A program made the translations under genes and the position numbers. DNA of 63,415 bases, the filler included, from Stramenopiles sp. TOSAG23-6 (lineage: Eukaryota), in NCBI GenBank assembly GCA_900128565.1. It is 11 parts of 11 records of this genome, joined end to end, with 100 filler letters (N's around TTAATTAATTAA, not from the genome) between each part and the next. Parts side by side here need not be neighbours in the genome. Positions count along the whole stretch, not along the records: positions 32,891 to 43,697 come from LT636291.1; 10 more parts are not named here. The stretch is one strand, 5' to 3'. The stretch's first letter is position 1. Each line of letters opens with the position of its first letter. Shown one piece after another: positions 10,901-57,432 of the stretch. The notes beneath the pieces are model-generated. The model had not been told where the DNA came from and ran no database searches. It worked only from the letters and a program-made list of their open reading frames with translations.

Positions 10901-11000
10901 NNNNNNNNNNNNNNNNNNNNNNNNNNNNNNNNNNNNNNNNNNNNTTAATTAATTAANNNNNNNNNNNNNNNNNNNNNNNNNNNNNNNNNNNNNNNNNNNN
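10901..11000. other. Artificial contig spacer N-TTAATTAATTAA-N (also 21854-21953, 32791-32890, 43698-43797, 54566-54665, 56043-56142, 57519-57618, 58994-59093, 60469-60568, 61944-62043)
   Basis: Identical 100-nt pattern with stops in six frames; contigs decrease in length. Confidence 0.95.
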
Positions 11001-11058
11001 ACAAAATTTCGTACGAAAAATAAATTCGATTTTTTTGTAAAAAAAAAATAAAACACAC

Positions 11059-13681: not shown

Positions 13682-13776
13682 AAATTTTTTCTGAAAAATA
13701 TTTCAAATTTTTTTTCGTTAGGTACAAATTNTCGTACGAAAAATAAATTCGAAATTGAAAAAAAAATAAAACGTAC

Positions 13777-15409
13777 ATTATTAGGAGGTATGTGAAATTC
13801 AGTTTCAGTTGTTAATTCACCTTCTACTGTAACTGTTGAAGCACCATCACTACCATTTGCGGTAGATTTTGCTGGTGTGGGAGGAAAAAGATGATCATAA
13901 AATTGTCCACCTTCATGTATTTAAGAAAATATTTCAAAAAAAAATCGTTAGGTACAAAATTGCGTACGAAAAAAAAATCGAATTTCAAAAAAAATAAAAA
14001 CATACATCGTAGTTGAGTATAAATACTGTTTTTGAATACACATGTGCATTATCTGGATCACCCAAAACAGCTAAAATTCTGGCACTTAAATCTTCACCAT
14101 CTTGAGGGTGATTTGAAGCATGTTCACTAAGAGCTGTTGGACCAACAATCCAACTTACTTGTGGTAATTGATCAGAGGCTACATCATTTGCAAATTGATC
14201 TACAACATTGTTACTTTTATACATACCCTTATCCCACAAAGGATCTCCAGGTTTTACATTTTTAAATTTTCCAAACCATGCAAAAGCATTATCATCAAAA
14301 TTATCTTTTTCTTGGTAGACTTTCCATGAAATTCCATTTTTTTCTAGTGTCTCCGCCATTGTTTCCCATCGCATTTCGTTTGAATATTGTTCAGAATCAT
14401 CCAAAAGACATAAATTTGAATCTTTTGCTGAGAGTCCATTAGAACCTGTAAAAAGGTGTTGCCTGTTGGGATTTGTTGCAGTAAAAGTAGATTGAAAGTA
14501 TTGATCACTGAGAGTAAATTCATCAGCAAGTGAATAATAAAATGGCAAATCTGTTCTATTAAAATAAGCCATACCATAACCAGGCTTCCTTGCAGTATTC
14601 CATGCATCAGCCCAACCATTATTCCATATGTTAATATTAGATTCATAGGCCATCTCTGGTGCTGGCATACAAGTTGCTGCTGTGTCTCTGAAGTGTAAAG
14701 GAAAAGGAAGCATATATTGTGCATCACATTTTACACCAGGCTTCCAACAAAACGTATCAACACCAGAGCAATCTCCAGAAGCATCATCACAACATACCAT
14801 ATCGTTACCATCACTCCTATTACACACTTGATCCTTCACGGAACAGTGCCAACCAGCACAAGTGTTTACACGGGATGGTTCCGGGGCGAACAAGTCATCT
14901 GGTAGTTGGGGAATTTTGACACGTAGGTCAGAGGGGCAAATTGGAGCTTCAGTCAAAGAATCGCGTACATTCAAGTGCTCAATAGTCGTAGTATATAAAT
15001 CATTCATGAATTCTGTACATGTTTCATTCCTTGCAACGTGTATGGGAGGAGACGCGCTTTTCAGTACGTCTAAAAACTCAGAACAAGTTGAACCATCAAC
15101 AATTTCACGAATATCAGAAGCACCATCTTTCCACTTCATACTACATGCGCTACATCCACATCGCGAGGAAGAAGTTGGTGGTGAAGGCTGGGGTACAGGC
15201 TGATAGAACGGAGATAATCCTGAAGGTAGTATGGGAGCAGTTCTATCGTTAAATCCTCGCACCCCTTTGAGTGACCCATAGTAGTGGTCAAACGAGCGGT
15301 TCTCTTGCATAAAAATCACAATGTGTTCAACATCACGGATTGTACCAGTAGGCTTACTTTCTGCAACCAAGATGGATATGAAATAAATCAATGTACTTAC
15401 TCTCATCAT
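13777..15409 (-). CDS. Secreted phosphocholine-specific phospholipase C (phosphoesterase family, PlcH/PlcN type), C-terminus missing
   Basis: Signal peptide, DVEHIVIFMQENRSFDHYYG, TNPNR, LPQVSWIV, NYD|EGGQFYDH across intron 13915-14005. Confidence 0.9.
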
Positions 15410-16340: not shown

Positions 16341-16422
16341 CAAGGGGGTTTTAAATTTAAAATATATATATATTTGTACGAAATTTTGTACCTAACGAAA
16401 TTTATATAAAAACAGAAAAAAA

Positions 16423-19400
16423 TTATTTTTTAAAATAAATTCCTCTCTCTATTGCTGCTAGTCTACCTGCTCTTTCTGCAGCAGCCAATATATCAGCCAA
16501 TTTATCTCCTGCCCCAAACACCACAGGCGGACAATTTTTACTACTGTTTTCTATAATTCCCATTTTTTTTGAACTATATTTTACATTACTTTTATCATCT
16601 GATTTCTTGGAAGGTTCAAAAGAAGATTCCAATTCTGACATGCTTTGTGTACTTTCTTCAAATTCATCGCTATCACTAGCATAAATGTCATCAACACTCG
16701 TACGTAATTTGCAGTTAACATCGACAGTATTAAGAATGCTATTATGTTTGTTAGTTGTATTCTCACATGTTGTTTTTGTGTTGTATGCGTTTGAGAACAC
16801 CTTACTACTTGTATATTTTTTGGAAAATTCTTTTCGTCTATATTTGGGGATCACGGTTGCAGCGTATTTTTGAGACCAGTTTTTTGCATAATACTTTGTA
16901 TTATATGGATTCAGTTTTTCTGTATATTGTTCTGCATCATTATTACTACATTTACTATCATGTTTCGTAAAACTATTTGTTGAATCAGCACATTCAATAC
17001 CTTTCATTTGCTTACTTTTTTCTTTAATTGAAATTCTAGCATGGGTGTCACTTTGCCTCAAAGATTTTTTGCTTTCTTTTTGATTTAAATTCCTATACTT
17101 TGAAGTGTAATTGTGATTCTTTCTTTGCAATTTTCTAGAAGATTTTTTACCTGTTGTAAGGATTGCAGCTGGCGCCGCAGCAAAAATATAGTTTTTCGTA
17201 GATTTTGATACACTTGAAGTGATTTCTTTACTAGAAGTATGCTTATTTTTTTGTTTAGGTGTTAGTCTGAAACCAACGAGACCTAAGCCAAGACTAAATT
17301 CTCTTTCTTGTTTTTCTCGAAGTGAAACAAATGGTTTCCTATTATTAACATTTTCAGGATGATGGGCTGATTTATCCAGATTCGGTTTTCTATGTAATCC
17401 TTTATTCTTTTCGTGGTTATTCCTACGAGAATTTTGAGAATGTCTGTAGAGAACAGGGTTACATCGCATGAAAGTTCTGGAAGATACACGAAGTGTGTCT
17501 GAGAGCTTCATACTTAATCCTCGGGCAGATTTTGGTCTATTATATAAATGCCTTTGTGCAGACCTCTTTATGTGTCCTGATTTTGCACGTCTCTTTATTT
17601 TATTTTTCACAGTTTTTACATTTTTCACGTTTTTTATGTTTTGTATGTTTTTTATGGTAGACACACAAGAAAAATTGTCTGAATAACCGCTTCCTTTTTG
17701 GTGTATACCAATTTCAGCAACTAAATCATCATTTTTTATTTCATCTTTAAGTATATTTAATGTCTCTATATTTGATGATATTGTTCGTTCATCGTTACAT
17801 TTATTTGTTGAATCTTCTGAAAGTTCCGAACATGGCAAAGGAAAATTCGAATCCACTATATCCTGTACCAAATTAGTACATAGTTCATTTGAGGAGGATT
17901 GATTAACTACTATTGATTCTTCTTGCATACAAAACTTGATTTGTTTTGCTTCGGCAATCAATAACTTTTTCCACATGGTCAATGTAAGGTCATTAACGCC
18001 ATCATCAAATCGAAATTTTGTGTACTTATCCGAATCTTTTAATGAATTTTGTGTATTTTGTGTACAATGAAAGATATTGATTTTACCAGGGACTAATGTT
18101 TCTACATCGGAATTTTTGTCATGCATATCTTCCATACTTGAGTGTTGAAGGCATTCATTGGCAGACATTCTATTCTGTGGATTAAATGCTAACAAATTTT
18201 TTATAAGTTCTAACAATGTTGAAGTTAGAGTTGGACTTTTCCTTGTACATAAAAACTCTTCTAAAGTTGTTCTTTCTAAATTATTGTCAAGATTTATGCT
18301 ATATTCTTCCGTCTTGGTCTCTTTTTCATTAACTATTTCATGTTGTTTTTCATAATCTTCATCAAATTTTTCTACCTGAATACTTCTATCATTTGAACAA
18401 GTACCAAACTTCGTACTTAACGAATTTTGTACTTGCTGGGTTTCGGTCACAGTAGTCTTATTTTCAAGAAGAAACTTGATGGCAGCTCTATTCGTTATAG
18501 CATCCAAATCTGATTCACATGGATACCCAATCATATTAAAAATAGTTTGCAATTGATGAATGTAACTTTTTCCAGGGAATAGAGCAGTTCGAGCAATCAT
18601 TTCCCCAATAATACAGCCAGTCGCCCACATATCAATAGAATTCGTATAGTTCCTACAATTTAGTAATAATTCTGGTGCTCTGTACCAACGTGTAACGACG
18701 TACTCCGTCAAATCACCCGCTGATCGATGCTGTTCTGTTATGTCCCGAGACATACCAAAGTCACAAAGTTTTAACTCACAATTTGCATTCAGTAATATAT
18801 TGGATGGTTTCAAATCATGTATTGTGAAGTAATATATTACATTCGAAATTCATTAGGNACGGAATTTTCATAGTAAAAAAAATAAATTTGAAATCGTAAA
18901 GTAAATGTACACGATGTGTTACACTCGCTAGATGAATATGCTTCAGTGCACATAATAACTGATAAGTGATAAATATTATATGAAGTTCGCTTAATACAGT
19001 AGTTGACTGAATAACTCTATCTAAATCAGTTTCCATTAGGTCCGTGACTATATACATACTTGAGAGGTGTCCAGATTGACAACTAAATTTTTCAGGTCGT
19101 GAACTATCGCTATTTTCTAGGGAATCGATGGATTCATCCGAAGTATCTGCGTCATCAAAAATCTTTCCAGCACCGTGTATAATGATATCAAGTATACCAA
19201 GAATATTAGGGTGACAGAAATGTTCTAATAAACGGATTTCTCGTAGAGCTCGCCTAGCTTGCTCAGCAGTGTCACACACTACTCTTTTACAGGCGACATT
19301 GTGTTGAAAAAATGGATGTGAGGCTGCCCAAACGACACCGAACCGACCACTTCCGATCACATTCTTTGGAATGTATCCATGTCGCAGAAGAGTTCGTCTC

Positions 19401-20843: not shown

Positions 20844-20941
20844 ATGTATTTTGGAAAAATATTTCAAAAAAAACATCGTTAGGTACAAAATTTCGTACGA
20901 AAAAAAAATTCGATTTTTTTGTAAAAAAAAATAAAACATAC

Positions 20942-21798: not shown

Positions 21799-21953
21799 AT
21801 GTATTTTGGAAAAATATTTCAAAATTTACTAAAAAAAAAATTTGTTAGGTACANNNNNNNNNNNNNNNNNNNNNNNNNNNNNNNNNNNNNNNNNNNNTTA
21901 ATTAATTAANNNNNNNNNNNNNNNNNNNNNNNNNNNNNNNNNNNNNNNNNNNN

Positions 21954-22443
21954 ATATTGAGTTATGCTAAAATGTTTACGTACAAATATCTGAGTTCAGG
22001 AAGTGCTGATGGTAATCCATTGAAGCTACTAATTTGATTTTGTTCGAGATACCTATATTTGTAGTGATATAAAAACATTGTCATATTGAGTTATTGAAAA
22101 TATTGAATATAACACATTGTTGACTATATTGAGTTATGCTTAAATTGTTACGTACAAACTATGCAGATTCGGAAGCTCAATTAATCCATGAAAGGATGTA
22201 ATTTGATTATCTGAGAAATTCCTATATTTGTTGTGATATGAAAAACATCGTAATATTGAGTCATTGAAATATATTGCATATGAAATTTTGTTGATGATAT
22301 TGAATTATGCTGAAATTTTACATACAACCTCTCCAGTAAAGGAAGTTTGGGTAATCCATGAATACTTGTAATTTGATTACTGGTGAGATACCTATATTTG
22401 TAGTGATATAAAAAATATTTAAAGATTAAGTTATTGAAAAATG
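21954..22443. repeat. Diverged ~170-bp tandem repeat, about 3 units
   Basis: ATATTGA(G/A)TTATGCT at 21954, 22126, 22297; CCTATATTTG at 22052, 22221, 22391. Confidence 0.8.
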
Positions 22444-22493
22444 TTAAATGTAAAATGTCTTATACGAATAGGCGAAATAATTGATACTGTAAC

Positions 22494-23798
22494 TTACAGT
22501 TCTGTTAAATGCAAAAGACCTGATAGAAGAGCAAGTTCGTTAAAATCTGAACTCGCAATATAAATCTCATCACTCGATATAGAATCTTCATCGCATAACG
22601 ATTGATAAAACACTGTTGACTCCATATGCGTAAAGTAAGGCTGTACTTGCGCAATAATTTTTTCCGACAAAGCAATCTCTCTTTTCAGGGTTGCACCCAT
22701 AGCAGTTACAAAGTTGTCAATTATGAGTAATGGTTCAAGATATTTTTTTAATGGACTAGGTTCTCCGGAGTTGGGTACATAAGGTTCGGCGTTAGCATTT
22801 TCTGAAAACATTTTTAGAATTAGTTTTATCGAAATGTCAGTGAACACATCGAAGTTTTGTAACTCATTTGAAGCACGAAACAGTTGTTTTGAGTCCAATT
22901 GCCACACGAGAAAGTTAAATAAGTCACCGGTTGGAAAGGCGTGCGCAAATGCAATAATTTGTGCTTGTTGCAAACTGTCAAAGTGCTGGAAGTCGCGTTT
23001 TATAGTGTTGACATCAACGGGAGTCAAATTTGTTGTATCACTTGCTTCTTGCAGAAAATTACACTTCTCATGATCATACAATTGAATCTCCCATGAAAAC
23101 GCAGTTTTAGCATACATCGTATTTTTAATAAGAGCGAGGGCAAGGTAAAAATATTCTTTATAAGACGGAGTTGTTTCTTCCTTAAAGCCAATATGTTCCA
23201 GTAAATTATTAGCACGTTTTGTATCATCTTCTGATATCAGTGTTTTTCTCTTGTCACAGTCATAACTGAGATATATTTTACGAATTAACATGGATTCAAT
23301 TACGTCAGTTGGTTCTTTAACTTCATTATATAAAAGAAACAGGTTTCTAGGAGTATAATCCATTTCGGCAATAACTTGTACAATTTCGTTGGTAGCCTCA
23401 TTCATTCCTAGAAAAATAGCAGCATTTAAAAGTTGTGGTAACCCTAAATCACCCCTCTTAATGACTTCGCGTGCGGCAGCACGGGAACCCGTGGCGGTAG
23501 GATTCTTTTCTTCATTTAGGTTTTGCTGAATTTCAAAAAAAAGAGTTTTAATTTGATCAGTTGATAAAGATAAAGGGATAATGGTTTCATAATCTTCAGT
23601 ATCTTCAATCATTTGGGTCATTGTTACACTCTTTACAGTTAAAGATTGAGGGACTTCGATGACTTCTTCACCCTCACTAGATCGAACCGTAACACAATGT
23701 TCCTTCTCAGTTCTTAGTCTTTTTAGAGGACGTGTTGCACCCATTCCACCCATTACATACAAAATAGATAGAATAATTAGTAACATAATCTTGACCAT
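22494..23798 (-). CDS. Skp1/BTB-like domain protein with N-terminal signal-like segment
   Basis: MVKIMLLIILSILYVMGG, then VTVRSSEGEEVIEV...KSVTMTQMIED...LLNAAIFLGM (Skp1-like). Confidence 0.55.
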   Translation of the reverse strand: MVKIMLLIILSILYVMGGMGATRPLKRLRTEKEHCVTVRSSEGEEVIEVPQSLTVKSVTMTQMIEDTEDYETIIPLSLSTDQIKTLFFEIQQNLNEEKNPTATGSRAAAREVIKRGDLGLPQLLNAAIFLGMNEATNEIVQVIAEMDYTPRNLFLLYNEVKEPTDVIESMLIRKIYLSYDCDKRKTLISEDDTKRANNLLEHIGFKEETTPSYKEYFYLALALIKNTMYAKTAFSWEIQLYDHEKCNFLQEASDTTNLTPVDVNTIKRDFQHFDSLQQAQIIAFAHAFPTGDLFNFLVWQLDSKQLFRASNELQNFDVFTDISIKLILKMFSENANAEPYVPNSGEPSPLKKYLEPLLIIDNFVTAMGATLKREIALSEKIIAQVQPYFTHMESTVFYQSLCDEDSISSDEIYIASSDFNELALLSGLLHLTEL

Positions 23799-28870: not shown

Positions 28871-30460
28871 TTACCCCTGTCGTTGCTGTGGTGCACATTT
28901 GATAATATCATCTACACGTAAAATCATTTCTGCCGCTTCAGCAGCTGATAGCAATACTTGCTCCTTCAATTTCAAAGGTTCACGAACACCAATTTCTGAC
29001 ATACAACCAATAGACCCTTTGGCCATATCTAGACCAGCAGTCGTTTTACCGTTGAAATGAGCATTACGCAATTGAGTGACGAGTTCAGCACTGTCGAAAC
29101 CAGCATTATCAGCAATTGTTGCCGGCATCTGACGAAGTGCACGAGCAAATGCTTCGATAGCAAGTGACTTCTTACCAGCAACCTTTGGTACCAATTCATC
29201 ACAGGCTTTTGCCATCAAAGTTTCTGCACAACCACCACCATATGTCACTCGCGGTTCTTTTACAGTTGCGAGAAGTACACACAATGCATCATGTAAAGAT
29301 CTTTCAGCCTCATCAAGTAAATGTTTACTTGCACCACGGAGAACAATACTACATGCAGAACCAGATTTACAACCAGAAAAACGAATACATTTGTCCTCAC
29401 CAATCATAATCTCTTCAATCAGATCACACGTACCTAAACTGACAAGCTCTGGATGTTCAAACGTAGAACATATTTCTGCACCAGTGACTGCAGCTAAGCG
29501 TTCAATACCATCAAAGTCTGCGTGTTCAATCGACATAACACCAGCATCAGCAAACAACTGCTCAGGCCAGTTATATATGAGCTGTCGATTGATAAATACG
29601 TTTACTCCATGTTTTACAATTTTGTCGACTTTACCTTTCATTTTCTTCTTTTCTGCTTCTTCAATTAATGCAACGCTTTCCATATCTTTGACGCGTACAC
29701 GAGCTCCATATATCTTGATTTTATCAGTGTCCATTGATGTGTTTGCAATCATAATTTTTGCGTTCTCGATACGTTTCGGACATCCTACGCCAATTTTTTT
29801 AGACATGACAAATCCATTATCAAGATAAGACTCCTCTAGTCGGCCCCCAGGTTTTTTAATGATCTGAATGTTATCCAAATTATTAGATCCTTTTAATCGT
29901 AGGATTGCTTCAACAGCAAGGTTAGCAAAATGGTCCTTTTCGTGGGTTAAAAGTTTAGAGGAGAGGGTAGTCAAGGCTATTTGAGTCAAATCCTTTCGAA
30001 AATTAGCAGAATTTTCACTGTTATCAACTGACGATTCTCGCAGAGCTGTGCGAGCGGCCTTGGTAGCCATGCGAAATCCATCAATAATTGTCATAGGATG
30101 GATACGTTGCTGAACAAGTTTCTCTGCTTCACGCAAAAATTCACCTGCTAGAACGACAACACTGGTAGTCCCATCACCAACTTCACTATCCTGATTCTTA
30201 GAAATATCAACAAGTACTTTAGCCGCGGCGTTATCAATGTGAATCGAACGCAAAATAGTAGCGCCATCATTAGTTACAGTCACTGGTCCAGATCCGGCAT
30301 CGGGGTTTCCTACAGATTGAAGGATCTTATCCATGCCTTTTGGACCAAGTGTCGTACGGACTAGGTCCGCAATGGCGATGGCCCCGACAAACGATGCGAG
30401 ACGGGCATTCTCACCTTTATCGACCTGTGTACCACCTGCTAATACTGCTGCTTCTGCCAT
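28871..30460 (-). CDS. CCT2: T-complex protein 1 subunit beta
   Basis: [57 protein letters not shown]; intronless CDS. Confidence 0.97.
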
Positions 30461-30996
30461 TCTTTCATGTGATTAATATAAAAAAGTGTTTTCATTGATA
30501 AATACACGTAAAGTAAGTCAAAAACAAGTGCGCGAAAAATACTATGATGGACACATATACAAGAACATCAGTTAAGAGTTGATGTTGACGTTAGTAACAT
30601 AAACAAGGATTCGAAAAAAGGGAGACAGTCCATATATAAATGGTACAAACACAAATACAAGGGAAACATGATAATAAATAACATCAATGTGCATTTTGCA
30701 TATGATAACACAACGTACTTTAGTATTGGGTTTTCGTCTCACACTCTGCGCATACGAATTGTAGAAGTCTTGATCATTTGGTGGCCATTGACCTGGGATT
30801 GGCCAAAATTCGTTAAACGTCCATGATTTCAAGATTTCGTGTTACTACTACGTATACTCAGGCTTATATTTATTTCAGGGTAAAAAAAACAAGGGTATAA
30901 TACAGAAAAGATAATAATAGAGTCATTTAATGATGATATAATGTAAGATGTATCAGTATTGGTATTATTTTTATTATTTATAAGAGTAAAAGTGTC

Positions 30997-32693: not shown

Positions 32694-33278
32694 GTACTTT
32701 TTCATCATTAATTTTTTTTTATACGAAATTTTGTACCTAAACAAAAAAACAAAAAAAAAAAAAAAAAAGATTTTTTTTTTTTTTTTTTTTNNNNNNNNNN
32801 NNNNNNNNNNNNNNNNNNNNNNNNNNNNNNNNNNTTAATTAATTAANNNNNNNNNNNNNNNNNNNNNNNNNNNNNNNNNNNNNNNNNNNNGTTATTTTGA
32901 TACTGGAGTGAAAACTGGGAAAATTATTTAAATTTGGTTATTTTGATACTGGAGTGAAAACTGGGAAAATTATTTAAAATGTTTTAATAAATTTAAATTT
33001 GGTGTCTTTATACAATCAATTCACATAATTTTTTTTTTTTATGTATATCCAATCTATATTAGAAAATATAATTTGTCATTATTTATTCGTCACTTTATAT
33101 AGATATACAATACTATATTGTGTTATAACATATAGTATATATATACATTACAAACAATACTATATAGTATACCATATTTATATATATAATCAATTAAAAC
33201 TACTTTTACTGTTACTATAAACTAGACACATCATTATTATTACATATATATAATCAATTAAAACTACTTTTACTTTTA

Positions 33279-36200
33279 CTATAAACTAGAAACATCATTA
33301 TTATTACCCTTTGTTGAAGGAGTATTAAATAAAATATGTGATAAAGAACGTATGCCATCTAATGAGGCTTCAAGTTGAACACGACATGTTTCTCTTTCTT
33401 TTTCATTTTGTTTTATTCGTAATCCTTCCGAAGACAGACTCTTTACTAATTTATCTTTACGGTATAACAAAACTTTCTTAGCATTATCATCCAGACTCTC
33501 ATCTTTAAGCTTTTCATTCAAGTGTAGTATTCGTCTTTTGAGGTCACGTTTTGTTCTTTGTAATTCACTATTTGTCTTATTTAGCTTTGATTCATTTCTG
33601 GCATGCATTGCTACATTTGCTAAATGCATATATTGCTTATTTGGATTAGGATTACCTTGCTTAATGTTAGCTTTCAGTTCATTATATAAATCCGTTGCGT
33701 TTGCTTTTATAGATAATATTTCATCAACTTTTCTTTTAAGAATTATAAAACGAGCTTTGGCTTCTTCTAACATTGCAATCTGACTTCTCCAACATCTTCC
33801 CTGGTAAGCGACTTGACTACTCAGTTGCTGCCATTTGGATAATTCTATTGGTGTCATATGTATTTTGGAAAAATATTTCAAAAAAAAATCGTTAGGTACA
33901 AAATTTTTCTAAAAAAAAAAATTACAAAAAAAAAATTGAAAAAAAATAAAACATGCATCATTAGGATAGACTTTTGCTTTCTTATTATTACTCAACCCAA
34001 ACCCTAACTCTAACCCTTGTTGCACAGACACTTTCTTTTTTGACAAATGTAAATTTTTCCCTTTTATATTTTCTTCTGAGATTTTATTAATTGTATTACT
34101 TTTGGTGTATTTGAGAAGTAAATCAGTCACTGTAGCCAACAATGGGTGAATGAACGTATTTCCTTTTATCAATAAAAGATTTGGAATTATGTTTGAAAAT
34201 GGGACAAGTAAAGCTTTCTTTGCTCTTGAATGTGATTTGGACGTTTTCAATGATGATTCAAGATCATCTTGTACAGTAATGATTCCATGTATTTTGGAAA
34301 AATATTTAAAAAAAAAAAACTAAAATTCGTTAGGTACAAAATTTCGTACGAAAAAAAAATTCGATTTTTTTGTTAAAAAAAAAAAAAACGTACATGTGTA
34401 CTAATAAAATTTCTATCGCACTCGCTAGACGCATCATTACATAATTGTGTTGTATGTTTTTGTATCAAGCTACAATTATACCGTAACGCACTTTGAACTA
34501 AATGTATTTTGGAAAATTTTTTTTTTTTGTAAAATATGTTAGGTACAACATTTCGTACGAAAAAAAAATCGATTTTTTTGTTTAAAAAAAAAATAAAACA
34601 TACATCTATCACACCCTCCATAGTCTTCTCTGCTGATTTTCTTTCCAGTTGTACATGATCATACTTTATTTCTAATTTTTTATGTATTCTACGTAAACGT
34701 TGTTGCTCTACAATGGCAGCATCAAGTTTTCTCTGCTCACGTTGTATATGTATATTTGTTGTTTGTACCGTCTTTTCAAATGAATGTACTACCGATTTTG
34801 TATATGGTATTCCTAATTTAGTGCATGTGGCTTTATTCAGCGATTCTTGAAGTAAAGTGTAATTTTTTGAGCTTATTAAATGAGTTGCTTTACGTGTATT
34901 TTCAGAAATTCTGATTTTTATAAGATTATGAAATTGTTCCTTTAACTCTGATTCTATATCATCATCCATAATGAATGTACTAATCTGATCACGTACCGCA
35001 GAACATGTATTGCGAAAGAAAGAAAAATTCAAAAATTTGTTAGATATAAAATTTTGTATCAAAAATAAAAATAAAAATATTGAAAAAAATAAAAAAAAAA
35101 TAAAACAAAATAAAAAATAGTGAAAAAAATAAAAATAATGAAAAAAACGTACGTGCACATTTCACAACATTATCAGATAATACAGACGTATTAAATAAAT
35201 TTCTAATAAAAGACACACAATTTTGCATTGTGGATAAACGACTTTGATTTGTTGAATGCAAAGATTTGCTTTTTGTGTTTTTTGTGCTTGAAAAGTAGCT
35301 ATTTGAACAAATTTTTGTTTCAATTTCCGATGCATACTTTGGAAACCAATTTCGAGTTTTAACCAAATCTTTTAAGGCCGAGTTTGTAATTCCTCTCAGT
35401 CGAATACTGGTTGATTTAATACTTGACAGTGTTGACATTATTAGTTGTTGTTGTTTTGAATTACATTGAGTAGAATGAGAGTCTAACATTTCTAAACCAG
35501 TAAACACGCCAAGATTTTTGCTTTTTTTCTTTCTTATTTTGTTTGTGTTGGTTTGAGGCATTTTGTGCCATTCAAGATTGATTGAATAGTTACTTTTTCC
35601 AGTTGATGTAATCAATTTACATTTCTTTTGAGATATGTTTTTATGATGTTTAGAATTAGGTTCTAGGAATACAACTGCCTCTCCCAGATTATCATGAATA
35701 TCACCACCTACAGTATCCATGTATTTTGGAAAAATATTTCAAAAAAAATCTAAAAAAAATTGTTAGGTACAAAATTCCATACGAAAAAAAAATAAATTCG
35801 ATTTTTTTGTTTTAAAAAAAAAATATAAACATACATTCGCACCTCATCCATTGATGTCGCAATAACTCGAATATGTAACGCTGGTCGTTTCATTTGCACA
35901 GTCTTTTTTACATAATTTGTTGAATGTACATCATGGATGTATTTTGGAAAAATATTTCAAATTATTTTTTGTTAGGTACAAAATTTTTATAAAAAAAAAA
36001 TCATACANAAAAAAAAAAAAAACATACACAAATTTCGACATTTTTGATGTAAACCAAAAGACTTGATTCCAACAATTTGATAATGTCCAGAGTGACTTTG
36101 AAATTAATGCATTTTCTTCGAAATCTCCTTCACAACGAATAGCATATATTTTGGAAAAATATTTCAAAAAAAAATCTAAAAAAAATTGTTAGGTATAAAA

Positions 36201-39200
36201 TTTTCAAAAAAAAAAAAAAAACTAAATTCGAAATTGAAAAAAAATAAAACATATATGATCAAACCTTCTTTTGAAAACATCGGATGTAGAATGACACTGA
36301 TCCGATTCTTCTTCTTTAGATGCCGAGTCAAATAGTATTAATACAACATAAGTTTCTTTACCATTTAGATCAAATCTAACTTCGCCTGAGGGATCTTTCA
36401 TGTCTTGTTTTGTTTCTTTTGTTTCTTCTAATACATTTTTAATGTCTTGTTTTGTTTCTTTTGTTTCTTCTGATACATTTTTAATGTCGTTTTTACTTTC
36501 TTTTGACAAATTTTCAATAATTACCTTTATATCAAAATCAGGTAAAGATAATGAAACATCTTCATTTTGTATAATTACGTTTTCTTTTTTAGTGGATCCA
36601 ATATGTTTTTTATGCGGTGTAAAACGAATTGTATCTATCGTTGTTGATGTATTTGCTGTTTGAAAATGTTCAGCTTGAAGTATTGTGAAAAATATTTTTT
36701 TTTTTTTGAAAAAAATTGTTAGGTACAAAATTTCGTACGAAAAAAAAACATTGTAGGTAAAAAAATTCAAATTTTGAAAACGTACAACATCTTCTCCTCC
36801 AAGACTTTTTACCTCTTCTAATGTCGGTTTCGCATACAACATATATTTCATAACTATTCTATCATGTTCTGTAGCTGCATCAAGTATTTGGTCAACAGAA
36901 GATTTTGCTGTAGCTGTCAAATATGTACCATGTTTTTTCCAAACATCTTCAGCGAGAGCATATATTTTGGAAAAATATTTCAAAAAAAATCTAAAAAAAT
37001 TTGTTAGGTACAAAATTTACTATAAAAAATAAATTCGAATTTTTTTGTAAAAAAAAAATAAAACATACATCAGTCAATTCCTGGATAAGTTGATGTTCTA
37101 CAAGTTTGACTTTTTCTAAATGCAAAAGCTTTTGTTTTGTATTACGTTTAAAACAGTTTCGAAGTGAAGTTTTTATATCCAATGTTTCATCCACTTCAAT
37201 ACTGGAACTACTATTCTTCATGATATCATTGTTATTATCATTGTCATCTTGCACATTACTATTCGATGATGATTGAATGCCATCTTCAGTATTTCGAAGT
37301 TCATGTTCTTTTTTCCATAATGTTTTTTCCAATGATTTCACTGCGTTTCTTTGCACTTCTCTCACAGATGATAAATCAACTTTTTTGACTGTTGAAAATT
37401 TTGCTTTATTCTGGGTTTTCTGGGTTTTCTGGGTTTTCTTAGCTGCAAGTAAAAGATCTTTTTCTATTTGCTCTAAAAGCTCAGATTTCATTCTACTTAC
37501 TGAGACTATTTCATTCTTTTCATCTATTTCATCATTTATATCATATACATTTGCTTCATCAGTAATAAGTAGTTTATTCAATTCAAATCTGTTTTTACTA
37601 ATATCTTTAGAAAATGATGATACTGTATTTTCATGTATTTTGGAAAAATATTTCAAAAAAAATTGTAAAATTGTTAGGTACAACATTTCGTACGAAAAAA
37701 AAATTCGATTTTTTTGTTAAAAAAAAAATAAAACATACATACAATTTGCGAGATTTACATAAATGCATAGCTAAAGCAAGTGCAATAATAATTTTCTCCT
37801 GAAGTAGTGGTAGAATACTTTCTATTAAATGAAGATCAAAATTTGAAATACTGAGAGAATTGTGTTCAGTATCTGCATGTATTTTGGAAAAATATTTAAA
37901 AAAAAAATTTGAAAATTTGTTAGGTACAAAATTTTCAAAAAAAAAAACATTCGATTTTTTTGTAAAAAAAAAAATAAAACATACATTCATGTCATCTTTT
38001 GATTTTCTATTGAAATGTTTCATACCTTCCATTGATTTAATTACAGATTGTCTTAAACTCTCAATGTCTTCATTAATAATTAAATTATTTGAACATATTT
38101 TTTCGTGGTCAAGAAATCGTAAAGTTTTCATTGCAAATTCTTCAATTGCTTTTACAACAGATAAACACTCAATTCTGACAGCTTCACGAATTGGTTTTAT
38201 CAATTTTTCTGTTTCTTCAGATGCTCTTTTCCATAGGGTTTTTCGTAATTCTATTCCTTTATTTTTAATAATTTCTATTGTACATTGCTTGATTTCATCT
38301 AACACAAGTATATTTTCTTTATGTGTGGCATCCATCTTGTTTAATTTTGCGTTTTCATTATCTACCTCTTCTTGATTACACAAACCTGCTAGCTTCTCTT
38401 CTGCTTCTTTACGAGTTTCAACATTATTTTCAAGCCAAATTTTACTTTCATCTGCTTCTTGTAAAAGATCAATTACAGATTCACGAATTTCAATAGACTT
38501 TGTAGAAAATTCTGAAGCTTTTTTCTGCATCGTATTAAATTCCTCTTGACATGCATCAATAATTTGATTTTGATTATTTATTTGATTGTTAATATCATTT
38601 AACTTTTGTTCTTGTGATAAATTATCGGAAGTAACATTCTTTTTTGTAGTATTTAATGATGTAAGTTCTTTTTCCAATAGACCTGCTTTCTTTAATGCAC
38701 CATATCTTTTGGAAAAATATTTCAAAAAAAATTCTAAAAAATTTGTTAGGTACAAAATTTCGTATAAAAACCAAAAAAAAAAAAAAATTCGTTTTTTTTT
38801 TTACCGAAAAAAAAAAAATAAAACGTACAGGACTTGGATCACCATTTATTTTCCGTAGTTTTGCACTATCCAATTCAATCCGAAGTGACTTAATTTTATG
38901 ATTTAAATCTTTCATTTGTTTTACTAAAGTTTTCTTTTCATTCAAATCTGTTGATTCTTCATTTTCTGCTGTTTGTTCTGCTTCTTCAAGTTGGTCTCGT
39001 GCAAAATTCTTTGCATCGTTTATGTGATCAACACTACCCTCAGATATTTCTCTAATTTTATCTTGTAAACGATTTCTCCCCTCAGTTTCATTTTTTAACT
39101 GTTGGTTCAACATTTGTCTCAATGTATTTTAGAAAAATATTTAAAAAAAAAATTGAAAAAATTGTTAGGTACAAAATTTACTATAAAAAAAAATTCATAC

Positions 39201-40768
39201 AAAAAAAAAACATAAAACATACATGTATTAACTTTTGTTTCTTCTTTTGGTATATCCTGTTGTAGTTTTTCAAGTGATTTTTTCAATGTTATAATTTCTT
39301 CTTGAACGATTTTCAATTGATCTTTGGCACCTCTTGTCTTAAAACCACCATGTAATAGTAGAAAAAATATTTCAAAAAAAATACCAACTTGTTAGGTACA
39401 TTTTGTTTTTCATGAAAAAAAAAACGTTAGGTACAAAATTCCGTAAGAAAAAAAACAAACTCGATTCAAAGCAGCAGAAGCAGCGACTGAATCACTTTGA
39501 TCAGTCATTCGACATTGTTGTTCAATTTCACGAAATTTCGTGTCATAGCCGACTGAGACTTTTTCTAGACCAGCGATTGCTTTTTCAAGTTCAAGTTTTA
39601 ATTTTTTATTGTTTTGTCGTTTTTTCATTTGTCTTTCTTTTTCAGATTTTAACATGACGGAAACTTTCACAATTTTATTTCTTTTTTCTTCTATTTCAGA
39701 TTCTAATTTTGCAATCATGTATTTTGGAAAAATATTTCAAAAAAATTTCAAAAAAATTGTTAGGTACAAAATTTTTTTACCAAAAAAAAAAAAAATAAAA
39801 TAAATTCGATTTTTTTGTAAAAAAACAAAATAAAACATTCATAAGATTACAACCTTTGACAGTATCAATCGATTGAGGTTTTAGACTTTTTGCCTTTGCT
39901 GCGGAACGAAGTTCAGAACATATATTGTGAAAAATATTTTTTTTTTTACCGAAAAAAAAAATCGTTAGGTACAAAAGTTCGTACGAAAAAACAAATAAAT
40001 TCGAAATTTAATTTTGAAAACGGACGCGCCGCTTCAATTTCATTACGCATATAATTAAATGCTACAATTTGTGCATTCATGTAATTTTGGAGAAATATTT
40101 TTTTTGTAGTACAAATGTTTTGTTAGGGTCCTAGGTATGAAATTTTTATATAATTTTTTTTTTTTGAAATTTTTTTTTTCTTTGAAAGTAATGATAAAAA
40201 CATACATATTTTTTCGTATTCGTGTTATTTGTTCGGTATTTCGTGCAACTCGACTTCTTTCCAATTTTTCAAATCGCTCAAAAGCATTGTCTAAGAATGT
40301 AGTACTTTCAGCTGATAACTTTTCCGCAAGATCAAGAGAAATTGATGTTGGTGTTCCTTCATCTTCTTCATTTGTCGATTCTACAAATTTAGACAAGTTG
40401 GTTAGTTTTTTAAATGAAGATGACAAATCTCTCATGGATTTTAATTTCTTTTCCCCTATTTTTTCAAAATCTTGTAGCATATACTTTGTTGTATCTTTCC
40501 TATCCTCTATTTCACGAGACATTGTACCCAACGTCGCTTCTTGTGCATCAGCATAACCATATTCTAGATCCCATTTTTCGGTCGTGGTGTCAACACGTTT
40601 TTGAATTGAATCTTTGGAGTCTCGCATGTCCATTGCGACCCTTGCTAGTTGTATATACCTTTCTTCGGCTTCCTTTGGTGGTAAAAGACGAAAACGTTTG
40701 AACATGTTTGTATCGTCATCTTCTTCAGTGGTTTTTATATTACTAATAGTAACACTTTTCTTCTTCAT
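33279..40768 (-). CDS. Large coiled-coil protein, 18 exons, about 1862 aa
   Basis: Removing 17 family introns (1901 nt) from 7490 nt leaves 5589 nt, with phases matching at every junction; E/K-rich helical sequence. Confidence 0.75.
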
Positions 40769-42000: not shown

Positions 42001-43130
42001 TCAATTCAAATAGTTCAATGGTAACCATCCAGAATTTTTAGTTCTTTTATTTCTTCCTTTACACCATCCATCTTTTCGATACTCAATAATTTCAATTGTA
42101 TCACCAGCTTTAATTGCCAACTCATATAGTATTAAAAAAAATTCAAAAATGTTTTACTATTAGGTACAAAATTTTGTACGAAAAAAAAAAAAATCGAAAT
42201 TGGTTTAAAATTTTTTTTTTTCGTTAGGTACAAAATTTACTATGAAAAAAAAAATATGTTGATAAAAAATTGAAAAAAAAAAAAAAAAAAGTACATCTTC
42301 TCTCTGAGGTTTATATTCCCATTGTGCTTCTTTTATATCATGACCAAATTTTGATTTTGACTTTTCTGAATCTCCTTTGGTTTTGACTTTTTTGGCCTTT
42401 TTGGGATTCCGAATTTCGGATGTTTTCCCAGTCGATTTGTCTGCATTTTCAAGTTGACTTTCAATTGTTTCCGTTTCATCAATTTCTTTCTTTTCTCTAC
42501 GCTTTTTTTTAGTACGTTTTGATGATTTGCTGGAATTTGTATTTGTACCAGCAGATGCTCTACCAATCATATACATGCTAAAAGAGATAAATAATTGGAT
42601 AGTTAATAGAATGAGACACAAATAGCTATATAACCCTAACCCAATTGAATTTGTTGCCATTTTCATAATGGTACTAATGCATAGTAATATCCATAAAACC
42701 AAATCAATAAAGACAAAAACCTTTCGAGCAATTGTAGATTCAGAGAATTTTTCCCAATCTTTTTTACAGTAACAATTTATTGGATACTTTCCTTTTGTGC
42801 AACCTTTCACTAGGAGTACATTAATGGCTACAACATTCCATAACAAACAAAAGTACTGTGAAAAAATATTTAAGATTCATTTGGTTTTGTTAGGTACAAA
42901 ATTTTCATTTTTTTTTTGGTAGGTACAAAAGTTTCATAATAAAATAAAACATACAAAAGTGAAACTACAAAAGACCACATCAACCAAGACCGGAGACCTT
43001 GGTTACTATCATTGAGCCTTGCCATTAAAAATATTGAATAAATAATAACCAAAACACGAACTGTACAATGAATAGAGAAAAGTAAAGGTGTAGCATTACG
43101 AGTTTCAGTGTCAATAATCTTTTCATGAGT
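42001..43130 (-). CDS. Four-TM protein with C-terminal SH3 domain
   Basis: Four hydrophobic helices; AQWEYKPQRED|ELAIKAGDTIEIIEYRKDGWCKGRNKRTKNSGWLPLNYL across intron 42124-42294. Confidence 0.7.
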
Positions 43131-43626: not shown

Positions 43627-43797
43627 ATGAAATTTGGAAAAATATTTCAAAAAAAAAAAAAAAATGTTAGGTACAAAATTTCGTACGAAAAAAAAAANNN
43701 NNNNNNNNNNNNNNNNNNNNNNNNNNNNNNNNNNNNNNNNNTTAATTAATTAANNNNNNNNNNNNNNNNNNNNNNNNNNNNNNNNNNNNNNNNNNNN

Positions 43798-46700
43798 TTA
43801 TTTCCAGCGCCTACGGTGATACTAATACTACCTGCAGCACCAAGAGTTGCAGAACCAGTTCGCAAAGTAAGCATACCACTGCTAGCACCGGAAGTGTTAC
43901 CAGTTGTAAGTGTCATTGAACCTGTTACCCCACTTGCATTTCCTGTTCGAATACTAAACGACCCACTTGAAGAGGAAGAACTATAACCTGTAATCATAGA
44001 TACAGACCCTCCTGTCAAATCAGAACTTTCACCTGCATTTATTGTTACTCGCCCTCCACTACTTTCGTTTCCTGTGCCCACAATAATACTGATACTCCCA
44101 CCTGTGCCAAGCGTTGCAAATCCAGTACGTAATACNATTTCCCCACTATTACCTTTACTAGTAGTTCCTGATGTAAAAGACAACGATCCAGAAGTTCCGT
44201 CACTTCCTGCATCTGCAGTTCGTATACTAAANGAACCACTCGATGTGCTTTTTCCATATCCAGAAATCATGGAGAATGCACCACCAGTTTTGTCTGTGCT
44301 TTCTCCCGCTGNCATAACAATACGCCCTCCNGATGACNTATTNCCNGCNCCTACNGTGATACTNATACTACCTGCAGCACCAAGAGTTGCAGCACCAGTA
44401 CGAAAAGCAATCATTCCACTACTACCTTCACTAGTATTGCCCGAAGTAAAGGAAATTATCCCAGACACACCATCAGCCCCTGCATTTGATGTGCGGATAC
44501 TAAATGAACCGCTAGATGTTGCAGATCCATAACCTGTTGTCATCGATACGGCTCCACCAGTTGATGTTGTACTTTCACCAGCATTGATTGTGATACGCCC
44601 TCCTGTTGCTTTATTACCACTTCCAACAATTACACTCACGCTACCACCAGCACCTGACGTGGCCGAACCCGTTCGAAGAGTTATCGAACCACTGCTTCCT
44701 TTGCTAGTTTTACCTGAGGTGATTGATAATGAACCAGACACACCACCAGTCCCCGCATTGGCAGTTTTAATACTAAATGAACCACTTGAAGATGCTCTAC
44801 CATAACCAGAGACCAGTGATAAAGAACCACCAGTTGCATCCGTACTCTCACCAGCAGACATAACTATACGACCCCCAGTAGCTTTAGTACCACTACCAAC
44901 AGATATACTAATGCTTCCACCAGCACCTGATGTTGCATTTCCAGTGCGTAATGATATCACACCACTACTTCCTTTACTAGTCGTACCAGTTGAGAAAGAT
45001 ATAGATCCAGAAACACCATTTGTGCCACTATTTGAAGTGCGAATACTAAACGTGCCACTGGATGTTGCAGATCCATAACCTGTTGTCATAGATACAGCAC
45101 CACCAGTTGAATCTGTACTTTCACCGGCACTCAAAGTAATTCGGCCACCAGTTGATTTGTTTCCACTTCCAACTGTAATACTTATACTACCTGATGTACC
45201 TTTCGACGCAGCTCCAGTACGAAGTGTAATTGCACCACTACTGCCATTACTTGTTGTTCCAGATACAATCGAAAGCGAACCCGATACACCAGTAGTTCCA
45301 GCATTTGATGTTTTAATACTGAATGAACCACTGGATGTAGTGCTACCATAACCAGATATCATTGAGATAGAACCACCAGTTTTATCTGTACTTTTACCTG
45401 CCGACATTACAATACGACCACCAGTGGCTTTATTACCACTACCAACAGAAATAGTGATACTTCCACTAGCACCTAATGTTGCATTTCCAGTGCGTAATGA
45501 TATCATTCCACTACTTCCTTCACCAGATGTACCAGTAGATAGTGATAAAGAGCCAGACACACCTGAAGTTCCACTATTTGCAGTGCGAATACTAAACGTG
45601 CCACTGGAATTTGCAGATGCATAACCTGTTGTCATAGATACAGCACCACCAGTTGAATCTGTACTTTCACCGGCACTCAAAGTAATTCGGCCACCAGTTG
45701 ATTTGTTTCCACTTCCAACAACTACACTTATACTACCACCTGTACCTGAAGTGGCCGAACCAGTTCGAAGAGTTATCGAACCACTGGTTCCTTTGCTAGT
45801 TGTACCCGAGGTGAATGATAATGAACCAGACACACCATCAGTTCCCCCATTTGCAGTTTTGACACTAAATGACCCACTAGATGATACACGACCGTAACCG
45901 CTTGCAAGCGATACAGACCCACCCGTCCCAGCTTCGAAATGCGTACTTTGTCCAGCTGTTATAACAATCCTGCCTCCATTAGACAATGTACCACTACCTA
46001 CAACTGCACTTATGCTTCCACCTACACCTGATATTGCGGATCCTGTACGAAGAACAACTGTACCACTGCTTCCTGAACTAGTAGTTCCAGTCGTGAATGA
46101 AATACTTCCGCTAATTCCCGATGCACCTGCATCAGCACTTCGTACACTAAAAGCCCCACTGGATGAAGCACGACCATACCCAGTTACAAGAGACACAGAA
46201 CCACCAGTAAGTGATCCACTTGCACCAGATGTAATTACAATTTGACCACCACTGGAAAGCGTACCTGAACCAACAACTACACTGACACCTCCTGCGGCAC
46301 CAAGTGTAGCAGAGCCTGTGCGCATTATTATCATTCCACTGTTTCCTCTACTTGTCGTTCCTGTTGAGAACGATAAAGAACCGCTAATGCCATCTGCCCC
46401 CGCATTTGCACTACGGACGCTAAATGAACCGCTTGAACTAATCCGGCCATATCCTGTGGCAAGGGATACAGAACCACCTGTTCTATCAGTACTTTCACCA
46501 GCAGCGATAACTATCCGACCACCTGATCCTTTATTTCCGCTACCAACTACAAGACTAATGCTACCACCTCCACCCAATGTCGCAGAACCAGTTCTAAGGA
46601 TAAGTGCCCCACTGCTACCACCACTTGTAGTGCCTGTACTGAATGCAAGGATTCCAGAAACACCCGTTGTACCAGTAGCCGCAGTTCTAATGCTGAACGA

Positions 46701-54565: not shown

Positions 54566-54665
54566 NNNNNNNNNNNNNNNNNNNNNNNNNNNNNNNNNNN
54601 NNNNNNNNNTTAATTAATTAANNNNNNNNNNNNNNNNNNNNNNNNNNNNNNNNNNNNNNNNNNNN

Positions 54666-56142: not shown

Positions 56143-57432
56143 CTGTTAAATGTTGTTCATGCTCAATGTTATGTCCAATTGTTAAAGCTGATTCCATTGC
56201 AATACTTCTGCGTTGATTAAGATACTCCAAGGATTCTTTTTGATTTTTATCTGTCATATCTGCAACTAAAACACCGACTGAATCCTTATACATTTGAAAA
56301 TCAGGATGCTCCGTCGAAATTCGTGTTTTCTCCATTGAAATTAACATTGTAACCAAATCTTTTGTTTTGCCTAATGATTTCTGAATAAATGCTTTTGTTA
56401 AATTAATAATTTCGTCTCGTAATGAATCAAAAACAACCATACCAGACACTGAAATAGACTCCGCAATATTATTAAGTTCCGTATAACAATCATCTACACA
56501 TGTATTTTGGAAAAATATTTCAAAAAAATCTAAGTTATTCACAAGTGACATGTCATTAGGAAAACTGACTAAAAATATTTCATTAAGACGTGCTCCACCT
56601 ATCACATCATCTCCAGAAAATGTATTGTGAATTTATATAAAAAAGAAAACAAATATCAGGTACAATTGTTTTTGAAAAAAATTGAAAAAAAATTGAAAAA
56701 AAATTAAAAAAAAATTGAAATTGAAATTGAAAAAAAATTGAAATTCAAGAGTAAGAAAGACACAAAACAATTAGGTACAAGATTTTGTACTAAAAAAAAA
56801 CATACCATCTTCTCCAGTCCCGTATATAATTTCTTGTAACTTTTTGTGATAGACGTATTGTGAAAAAATATTTTTTTTTTGATTTTTTTTGTTAGGTACA
56901 AAATTTCGTATGAAAAAAAAAATAGACAAAAAAATGAAAAAAACATACACACATGCCGTATCGATGACATGTCTCTGTTTCTCATCTTGACTTTCTAGCT
57001 TTGGTATAGAATCCAAGTCCTGTTGTTTCTGGAAGATGAATTTTTTCACTTTTTGTTCAATTTCTGGTAAACATGAAAAAATATGCTTTTTTAATACAGA
57101 ACTCAATTTTGTTACTAAAACTTCTGTACCCCCTCCAGGTTTTGGCAAATTAGAATATATTGTGAAACATTATTTCAAAACAACATTCTTTAGATTTGGA
57201 TTATTTTTTTTGAAAGAAAAATAAATTTTAAAAAAAATAGTTAGGTACAAAATTTTGTATGAAACAAAATAAATCTGAAATTCATGATTAGATTCGAGAG
57301 TAAAGCATACATATTGAGGATGATTTGCAAAATATGCTTTTTCTGATTCCCATTGCTTATTGATAGCTTTATCATTTTTGATATCTTTTTGACTTCGATT
57401 TACCACAGGAATCCAACCCAATTTCAACGGGA
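56143..57432 (-). CDS. Dynamin-related GTPase fragment (end of GTPase domain and middle domain)
   Basis: PLKLGWIPVVNRSQKDI, YFANHPQY|SNL, LKKHIFSCLPEI, IGGARL, ISTEHPDF; several family introns. Confidence 0.8.

Follow-up and report, generated by a model that had tools for sequence, protein, structure and literature searches.

What kind of intron keeps a textbook 5′ half and never ends in AG? This question is raised by a gene on the minus strand, at positions 33279–40768 of a 63,415-nucleotide (nt) stretch of DNA, filler included, from Stramenopiles sp. TOSAG23-6 (GenBank assembly GCA_900128565.1); "the window" is used below for the whole stretch that was analysed. AG ends nearly all eukaryotic introns, and in the large-scale exceptions (Fritillaria, Amoebophrya, euglenids and diplonemids) the 5′ ends are altered too, or there are no fixed ends, so that the cause is hard to isolate in those cases. 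In the gene described here the 5′ and branch sites stay near the consensus of yeast; the departure is confined to the 3′ end, where it follows what appears to be the target-site duplication of a transposon. We consider it likely, at a rough probability of three in four, that this is one minus-strand gene split by 17 sense copies of an introner that resembles a miniature inverted-repeat transposable element (MITE) and is spliced at a non-AG 3′ site.

The window is made up of separate contigs chained by linkers of the form N44-TTAATTAATTAA-N44 (at 10901–11000, 21854–21953, 32791–32890, 43698–43797, 54566–54665 and five more positions), and distances or neighbourhoods across linkers are meaningless. 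Five contigs of ~10.8 kb are followed by ~1.4-kb pieces; the target gene lies wholly within the contig at 32891–43697.

The gene at 33279–40768 and its introns

The target gene reads from a start ATG at 40768 to a stop TAG at 33279–33281. The initial annotation had proposed 17 consecutive introns here, and all of them were found on the minus strand where it had placed them. The gene and its introns, numbered in the sense of the gene, are as follows.

33279–40768, minus strand: protein-coding gene, 18 exons, 1862 codons plus TAG, defined by its open frame
40079–40205, minus strand: intron 1, 127 nt, GT...CAT; the most diverged, with branch motif CCCTAAC; missed by the family profile
39920–40025, minus strand: intron 2, 106 nt, GTCCGT...TAT; the exon end, gc, differs from the intron end
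39717–39840, minus strand: intron 3, 124 nt, GAATGT...CAT; 5′ GA
39350–39460, minus strand: intron 4, 111 nt, GTTTGT...CAT; two branch-motif copies, partial internal duplication
39122–39222, minus strand: intron 5, 101 nt, GTATGT...CAT
38702–38828, minus strand: intron 6, 127 nt, GTACGT...TAT
37877–37984, minus strand: intron 7, 108 nt, GTATGT...CAT
37633–37738, minus strand: intron 8, 106 nt, GTATGT...CAT; the top match to the family profile
36960–37068, minus strand: intron 9, 109 nt, GTATGT...TAT; an unused AG 14 nt past the branch A
36678–36785, minus strand: intron 10, 108 nt, GTACGT...CTT; the exon end is tt too (direct repeat)
36144–36254, minus strand: intron 11, 111 nt, ATATGT...TAT; 5′ AT
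35937–36027, minus strand: intron 12, 91 nt, GTATGT...CAT; one internal N
35719–35834, minus strand: intron 13, 116 nt, GTATGT...CAT
35005–35152, minus strand: intron 14, 148 nt, GTACGT...CAT; 5′ half diverged
34502–34603, minus strand: intron 15, 102 nt, GTATGT...CAT
34287–34393, minus strand: intron 16, 107 nt, GTACGT...CAT; 92% identity to a copy on another contig (62247–62352)
33858–33956, minus strand: intron 17, 99 nt, GCATGT...CAT; 5′ GC

When these 17 intervals are cut from the minus strand of 33279–40768 and the remainder is translated, the result is a sequence of 5589 nt that encodes 1862 residues with no internal stop and a terminal TAG, which reproduces both the length of the open reading frame (ORF) and the occurrence of all three phases that had been claimed (here ten introns in phase 0, three in phase 1 and four in phase 2). 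A coding sequence of this base composition and of 1862 codons would be expected to contain about 160 stops; there are 142 and 231 in the two remaining frames after splicing, and 116–188 in each frame of the region before it. Exon sizes range from 53 to 717 nt. The introns, of 91–148 nt, have a G+C content of 16% versus 31% in the coding sequence, and retention of any one of 9 of the 17 would bring in an in-frame stop. Not one of the 17 ends in AG, as the initial annotation had also held: 16 end in AT and one in TT. At the 5′ end GT is found 14 times, and GC, GA and AT once each. In 12 of the 17 the end of the exon is the same as the end of the intron, and boundaries there can be slid by 1–2 nt.

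An AG acceptor as the true 3′ end was considered and rejected. When all AGs in the interval that opens at the branch motif and closes 46 nt inside the following exon were tried, six introns offered an ORF-compatible acceptor and 11 of the 17 offered none, and in those 11 the frame is not rescued. Five target introns skip an AG that lies 11–14 nt past the branch A.

The predicted product is rich in E, K, Q, R and L along most of its length. No Pfam domain was found in it when 17 exon pieces were scanned, and exon 7 had no match at E ≤ 0.001 among proteins of 131–419 aa (its best Atlas score was 0.84). An exhaustive HMMER scan with the last exon gave a single weak match (E 1.1e-4) that is confined to that exon. 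At the 3′ end of the gene a tandem duplication of ~66 nt (...atatatataatcaattaaaactacttttac...), at window positions 33170–33306, overlaps the stop codon.

A repeat family with 2-bp direct repeats

The 17 introns are copies of one ~100-nt family, GTATGTTTT...GTACCTAAC...CCAAAATAC+2 nt, and can be aligned end to end in the sense of the gene. The blocks of the family follow one another in the order GTATGTTTT plus a T-run, (A)ACAAAAAAATCGAATTT, TTTTCGTACGAAATTTTGTACCTAACAA, a T-rich spacer and GAAATATTTTTCCAAAATACAT. The core GTACCTAACRA, with at most one mismatch, occurs 51 times in the window versus 1.7 expected, and a profile of the 17 introns gives 49 matches in the window: 17 in the target gene (covering 16 of its 17 introns) and 32 elsewhere, on nearly every other contig, the G+C-rich contig excepted. 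The genes that bear copies encode a MAP kinase (MAPK), a phospholipase C (PLC), a TMC-domain protein and unknowns. Several contigs start or stop within a family copy, as would fit an assembly broken at a repeat.

For the comparisons that follow we curated 39 copies, namely the 17 of the target gene and 22 others whose ends were set by family likeness before frame testing; the copy at 13684/13691–13776, a suspect join, was left out. Between pairs of the 39, identity is 0.70 at the median and 0.96 at most, versus 0.58 and 0.67 for shuffled copies, and it reaches 0.92 between copies on different contigs. The likeness extends into spacer segments (AAAAAAATCGAATTT and TTTCGTACGAAA), which are not splicing signals. 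All 39 copies lie in sense orientation relative to the long frames that flank them. A 31-nt fragment of the family core (the branch-motif region) lies at 16372–16402, plus strand, between two convergent genes and outside long ORFs, and thus not all copies are coding-sequence introns. Two copies, 39350–39460 and 42149–42294 (minus strand), contain two branch-motif blocks each and are composite or partly duplicated; the first is nevertheless removed from the target gene as a single unit. The window gave no match to Rfam at gathering thresholds, and two exact patterns of the family had no match in JGI metagenome contigs.

The ends of the curated copies are strongly constrained. At the 5′ end the dinucleotide is GT in 36 of the 39 (GC, GA and AT once each), and at the 3′ end it is AT in 33, TT in four, GT in two and AG in none. 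The final base is T in every copy, and the last three bases are CAT (28), TAT (5), CTT (4) or CGT (2). In 30 of the 39 the upstream exon and the intron finish on the same two bases, the frequency of the dinucleotide AT in the coding sequence being 0.10; matches of 3 nt are found in six of the 39, and the downstream exon begins with G in 23. Directly before the 5′ splice site, as read from the flanks, 7 of the 17 target introns have YAY and 11 have NAT. The element end, ...CCAAAATAC, falls 33–44 nt past the branch A, and the cut falls 35–46 nt past it in the 17 target introns.

Because AT is its own reverse complement, AT-ended repeats are ambiguous with inverted ends, and it is the six non-AT copies that decide. 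Four of these six repeat the end of the exon (TT/TT at 36678, 19745 and 42851; GT/GT at 56853). A palindromic terminal repeat cannot give TT/TT or GT/GT, and these direct repeats therefore indicate a 2-bp target-site duplication. Read in this way, the element proper would be GTAT......ATAC, and the intron would consist of this element and the duplication copy downstream of it. In the folds of five copies GUAU–AUAC pairing was predicted each time (5/5), with the last two bases left free.

Exact removal also joins coding frames outside the target gene. The longest flanking frames are joined in phase at 18 of the 22 complete outside copies, versus one-third by chance, and at two of the genes concerned the junction falls within conserved sequence.

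18817–18910, minus strand: family-type intron in a MAP kinase gene (TEY type) on another contig, 94 nt, GTACATTT...CACAATACAT, removed as GT...AT
13915–14005, minus strand: family intron in a phospholipase C gene (PF04185), removal of which gives ...VFILNYD|EGGQFYDH...

The MAPK exon 19441–18911 ends in ...HLASVTHR and the next opens with DLKPSNILLN, joining HR|D. Positions 4–122 of the Pfam Pkinase profile run to the last residue of exon one and positions 123–261 start from the first residue of exon two; against ERK2 (3o71_A) the two pieces cover residues 96–146 and 147–264. This junction is informative because cgt, at the end of the exon, differs from the AT that closes the intron: if the boundaries are slid by two bases (NN+GT...AC), HHD replaces the invariant HRD. 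The PLC junction is free of gaps versus 9 homologs (the seven best plus two named rows among the 120 matches listed), eight of which read NYD|EGGQFYDH and one of which, a bacterial row, reads EQGGFFDH. The open frame and the conserved motifs need exactly these boundaries. The claim in the initial annotation of a precise removal that spares the genes thus appears sound, given a target frame that is open only after the exact cut, the 18 in-phase outside copies, and MAPK and PLC motifs that removal would restore.

Sense orientation, the 5′ GTATGT, the TACCTAAC branch motif and the U-rich tract suggest that a U2-type spliceosome takes the elements out of the RNA. In the mechanism that we propose, a MITE-like "introner" family of ~90–150 nt and 16% GC would be the common intron type of this genome. 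The signals would come with each copy: GTATGTTTT as a 5′ splice site of yeast-like form, TACCTAAC as the branch-site motif (the yeast branch-site sequence being TACTAAC) and a U-rich tract. Insertion would duplicate a 2-bp target, mostly AT, and the excised intron would be the element plus the downstream copy (GT......ATAC+NN), which would restore the original exon sequence exactly. It is because the 3′ end would be the duplication that the intron ends in AT, rarely in TT or GT, always with T last and never in AG. The first splicing step would be conventional, and the second cut would fall two bases past the ATAC of the element, at the end of the duplication. The U2-type spliceosome would thereby have a relaxed choice of 3′ splice site, which might be set by position after the element end or by the final U instead of by AG; the candidates, being constant at the 3′ end, are the final U, the block TTTTTCCAAAATAC upstream of it and the spacing to the branch site. 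One possible reading, which draws on structural work, has U-1 in contact with G+1 in place of the usual G+1/G-1 pair. We infer transposition as the origin of the family, and likewise the rule by which the 3′ cut is chosen.

Several observations weigh against the proposal of MITE-like introners spliced at a non-AG site. Four of the 22 outside copies (13684–13776, 20844–20941, 42149–42294 and 56853–56948) are out of phase. A PLC model carried through 5 introns is open over 1297 codons only if the copy at 13684/13691–13776 ends at AG, and because 13691–13776 needs an AG end where PLC homology stops, contigs may be mis-joined at family repeats. The boundary reading GT...AT, taken from the sequence, hangs on one decisive junction, that of the MAPK gene, where a one-base slide leaves the mRNA unchanged and a 1-nt slide (TG...CA) is compatible with the sequence. 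At about 4–9 nt (GTAT/ATAC and some A/T besides), the terminal inverted repeats are short, and no transposase domain was found among 29 reading frames of the window (scans of 10, 4 and 9 frames; 63 kb in all; target exons excluded). Five folded copies had z-scores of 0.07, 0.09, 1.07, -0.94 and -2.02 versus shuffles, which is no extra stability; because these five match shuffled sequence, there is no structured-RNA explanation. Protein libraries held no transcript product of the same species, the best match to the CCT-beta gene of the window being 89% identical. Finally, protein searches found no homolog that covers two target exons, and because none does, the reading as one gene has phase and the open frame as its sole supports.

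Alternative explanations and the host

The alternative that survives best, unlikely as we take it to be, is an assembly artefact, in which exons of different genes were partly joined through the repeated intron in the 17-intron gene. The assembly is a draft: it contains single Ns, none of its contigs exceeds 10.9 kb, and many have their first or last bases within a family copy. On the contig at 11001–21853, moreover, PLC homology stops after exon 2, at the family copy 13684/13691–13776, and the next ORF is unrelated: the stretch with which PLC homologs continue, PIGLGFRVP..., has no such exon in the window (tblastn), and beyond the copy, in the stretch down to 11059 on the minus strand, there is a different ORF of ~780 codons, split by three in-phase family introns. 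The copy is probably a mis-join inside a repeated intron, or else the gene is truncated or fused. For the target gene, however, 17 in-phase joins would arise by chance at (1/3)^17, each false join requiring a one-in-three coincidence, and given 17 of 17 such joins its wholesale chimerism is very unlikely, though single false joins, one or two of them, are a real risk. An artefact of this kind would also leave the nature of the introns untouched.

A somewhat poorer candidate is that these are spliceosomal introns whose true ends lie two bases over, NN+GTATG...ATAC, that is, AT...AC-type introns in which the 3′ AC is constant. Pairing of A+1 with C-1 is known to be tolerated by the spliceosome, the two sets of boundaries give the same mRNA in 30 of the 39 copies, and the 3′ ...ATAC is more constant than the final two bases. 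Against this, the MAPK junction keeps HRD only with GT...AT (the single informative junction), and the 5′ GTATGT fits U1/U6-type recognition from G+1. The signals of U12-type introns are also missing: there is no ATATCCTT, and the distance from branch to end is 35–46 nt and not the 10–26 nt of U12 introns.

The host was assessed from CCT-beta (28874–30472), an intronless neighbouring gene. Its best matches are environmental proteins at 89, 83, 77, 77 and 75% identity; the named matches at 69–71% are all from stramenopiles, and no tunicate is found among the 120 matches listed. In a tree of the window sequence and 27 matches, the window falls within a clade of six environmental rows (support 99/98), which meets ochrophytes plus oomycetes, labyrinthulids and plants at a fork that the tree leaves unresolved, and two opisthokont rows split from the side of the window at 96/98. 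The host is an uncultured marine protist, possibly a deep stramenopile, and because of the CCT-beta matches and tree it is not a larvacean. A tunicate (fritillariid) origin, which the YAY and 3′-AT rule had suggested, was ruled out by the same matches and tree. Near-identical words of the locus occur in seawater RNA and DNA libraries at shares of 0.05–0.13, which are no evidence for habitat or expression.

Programmed DNA elimination, in which the elements would be removed as TA-bounded internal eliminated sequences are in ciliates and not from RNA, is very improbable. The elements are short and AT-rich, have a 2-bp direct repeat and short inverted ends, occur in all phases and need exact excision, and eliminated sequences of Paramecium share these traits. 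Excision from DNA, however, requires neither a 5′ splice site nor a branch motif, and 39 of 39 copies are sense-oriented with both. The repeat is AT, TT or GT and not TA, and the target frame is without ciliate-style TAA/TAG read-through codons. DNA runs of the source organism contain 0.93 of the sampled words of the target locus, so the elements are present in the sequenced DNA and the unexcised form is what these runs carry. The CCT-beta tree does not group the host with named alveolates, none being among the 27 rows used.

A last possibility is that the copies are alike through long fixed splicing signals and not through the spread of a mobile element. One neighbouring gene bears on it.

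21954–22500, minus strand: leucine-rich repeat (LRR) gene with three complete canonical introns, GTAAGT/GTATGT/GTACGT...ACAAATATAG (...ATATAG), 103–106 nt, recognized by eye

The three introns, which separate single-repeat exons of 66, 66 and 69 nt, are canonical at both ends, and AG-ended introns therefore coexist with the AT-ended family. Long fixed signals are demanded in intron-poor yeasts and in Trichomonas, and conservation here is strongest at the 5′ site, the branch motif and the 3′ block, but we give this explanation as little credence as DNA elimination, since the spacers AAAAAAATCGAATTT and TTTCGTACGAAA are also alike, identity reaches 0.92–0.96 across genes and contigs, the direct repeats of exon and intron include TT and GT, and the GT...AG introns of the LRR gene are without family blocks.

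Besides CCT-beta, the neighbouring genes, of ordinary eukaryotic kinds, encode TFIIH Ssl1, PIH1, an RRM protein, Mss4/PDZ, RCC1 repeats, the TMC-domain protein and BspA-type LRR. Several contigs have, between genes and near gene starts, telomere-like CCCTAA/TTAGGG runs of 2–3 units, seen by eye; examples stand upstream of CCT-beta and RCC1 (~23.9–24.0 and 30.5–31 kb) and near 55.3 and 59.8 kb. These runs may be a promoter motif. The contig at 43798–54565 is of a different character: on its minus strand a single ORF of 3623 codons takes up the whole of it, with 44–48% G+C, a strong GC skew, no family introns and no Pfam match. An 800-residue part of this ORF scored 0.96–0.97 in Atlas against "Peptidase S74 domain (fragment)" clusters and viral hypothetical proteins. 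It may encode a repeat protein, fibre-like and rich in Gly/Ser, that has a foreign or viral source, or the contig may be a contaminant.

Comparison with known systems

If RNA data confirm it, the spliced introner family described here would be a further independent case of the creation of introns by transposons on the scale of a genome, and the spread of introners would then not have to await a duplication that supplies AG. If the proposal is true, the choice of a 3′ splice site could be studied almost in isolation, in a natural and cleanly separable experiment on the need for a 3′ AG. Gene finders based on GT–AG would break or miss most genes of such a lineage, which bears on protist catalogues derived from single cells and metagenomes; that standard predictors would fragment the target gene itself, as the initial annotation had suggested, is plausible. 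A broader proposition, on which we are evenly divided, is that an uncultured lineage of marine protists, of which environmental sequences are the sole record, had its genes filled with introns by a small DNA transposon independently of Fritillaria and Amoebophrya, with textbook 5′ and branch sites and a 3′ site at the end of a 2-bp duplication with a final U, the second cut being chosen by distance or context from ATAC or by a G+1/U-1 contact. We found no literature on such introns in a stramenopile-like protist, most subscription journals and supplements lying outside our reach; in their available portions, PMC5778133 and the preprint 10.64898/2026.04.17.719054 touch on introns in passing only.

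U12-type (AT–AC) introns are alike in tolerating a non-AG 3′ end, and the CCTAAC branch motif resembles TCCTTAAC. Unlike them, the family has no ATATCCTT/GTATCCTT 5′ site ([AG]TATCCTT), its 5′ end being GTATGTTTT, and its branch motif lies 35–46 nt from the 3′ end. The internal eliminated sequences of ciliates are likewise short, AT-rich inserts in coding sequence that have a 2-bp repeat, derive from transposons and are removed exactly, but they act at the level of DNA, with TA at their borders and no preferred strand, whereas the copies described here are sense-only and carry splicing signals.

Huff and colleagues are said to have described, in 2016, the introner elements of Micromonas pusilla and Aureococcus anophagefferens. 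As given in the accessible parts of two articles, these are short, non-autonomous elements with terminal inverted repeats and a target-site duplication, one splice site coming from the element (PMC11282704, PMC7789003). To the extent that those parts describe them, they resemble the present family in that element and one duplication copy together make up the intron, and in that many near-identical sense copies occur in unrelated genes. They differ, on the same partial account, in having canonical sites, with an AG that comes from the element or the duplication, whereas the duplication here is AT, TT or GT and the 3′ site is non-AG.

In the parasitic dinoflagellate Amoebophrya, the available text of Farhat et al. 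2021 (PMC7789003) describes repeated introns and non-GT–AG borders on a genome scale, with no preferred terminal dinucleotides, hairpin-forming inverted repeats of 8–20 nt, direct repeats of 3–5 nt and no U1 snRNA (small nuclear RNA). The likeness, judged from that text, is that direct repeats overlap the exon/intron borders and inverted repeats stand at the ends (PMC7789003). Unlike those of Amoebophrya, the introns described here have a nearly fixed 5′ GT and final T and an inverted repeat of ~4–9 nt, and no stable hairpin is predicted (z -2.0 to +1.1).

The closest parallel is provided by the non-canonical introns of the larvacean tunicate Fritillaria, which were reportedly described by Henriet and colleagues in 2019. 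The portions of the literature available to us report that F. borealis and F. pellucida have abundant non-AG introns, thought to derive from small inverted-repeat transposons (PMC13326754, Soo et al. 2026; PMC11282704). According to the part of the first of these that is accessible, a YAY triplet upstream of the 5′ site is repeated as the last three bases of the intron, the U-rich tract persists, and more introns end in AT than in anything else (44% in F. pellucida and 34% in F. borealis) (PMC13326754). A duplication of U2AF and changes in snRNAs are also reported for Fritillaria. As in Fritillaria, the repeat at the end of the exon becomes the 3′ end here, YAY (CAT or TAT) forms the last three bases in 33 of the 39 copies, and AT is the commonest end. 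Unlike Fritillaria, in which the 5′ end is AG and AG/AC and AG/AT are the main classes, the family has a canonical GTATGT with GT in 36 of 39 copies; its repeat is of 2 nt and not of 3 nt (3-nt matches in 6/39), it carries a strong TACCTAAC branch motif within the element, and its host is not a tunicate (opisthokonts split at 96/98). Transposon-made introns were already known; the addition proposed here is a family of introners that is textbook in its 5′ half, while its 3′ end is not AG and would be set by the target-site duplication.

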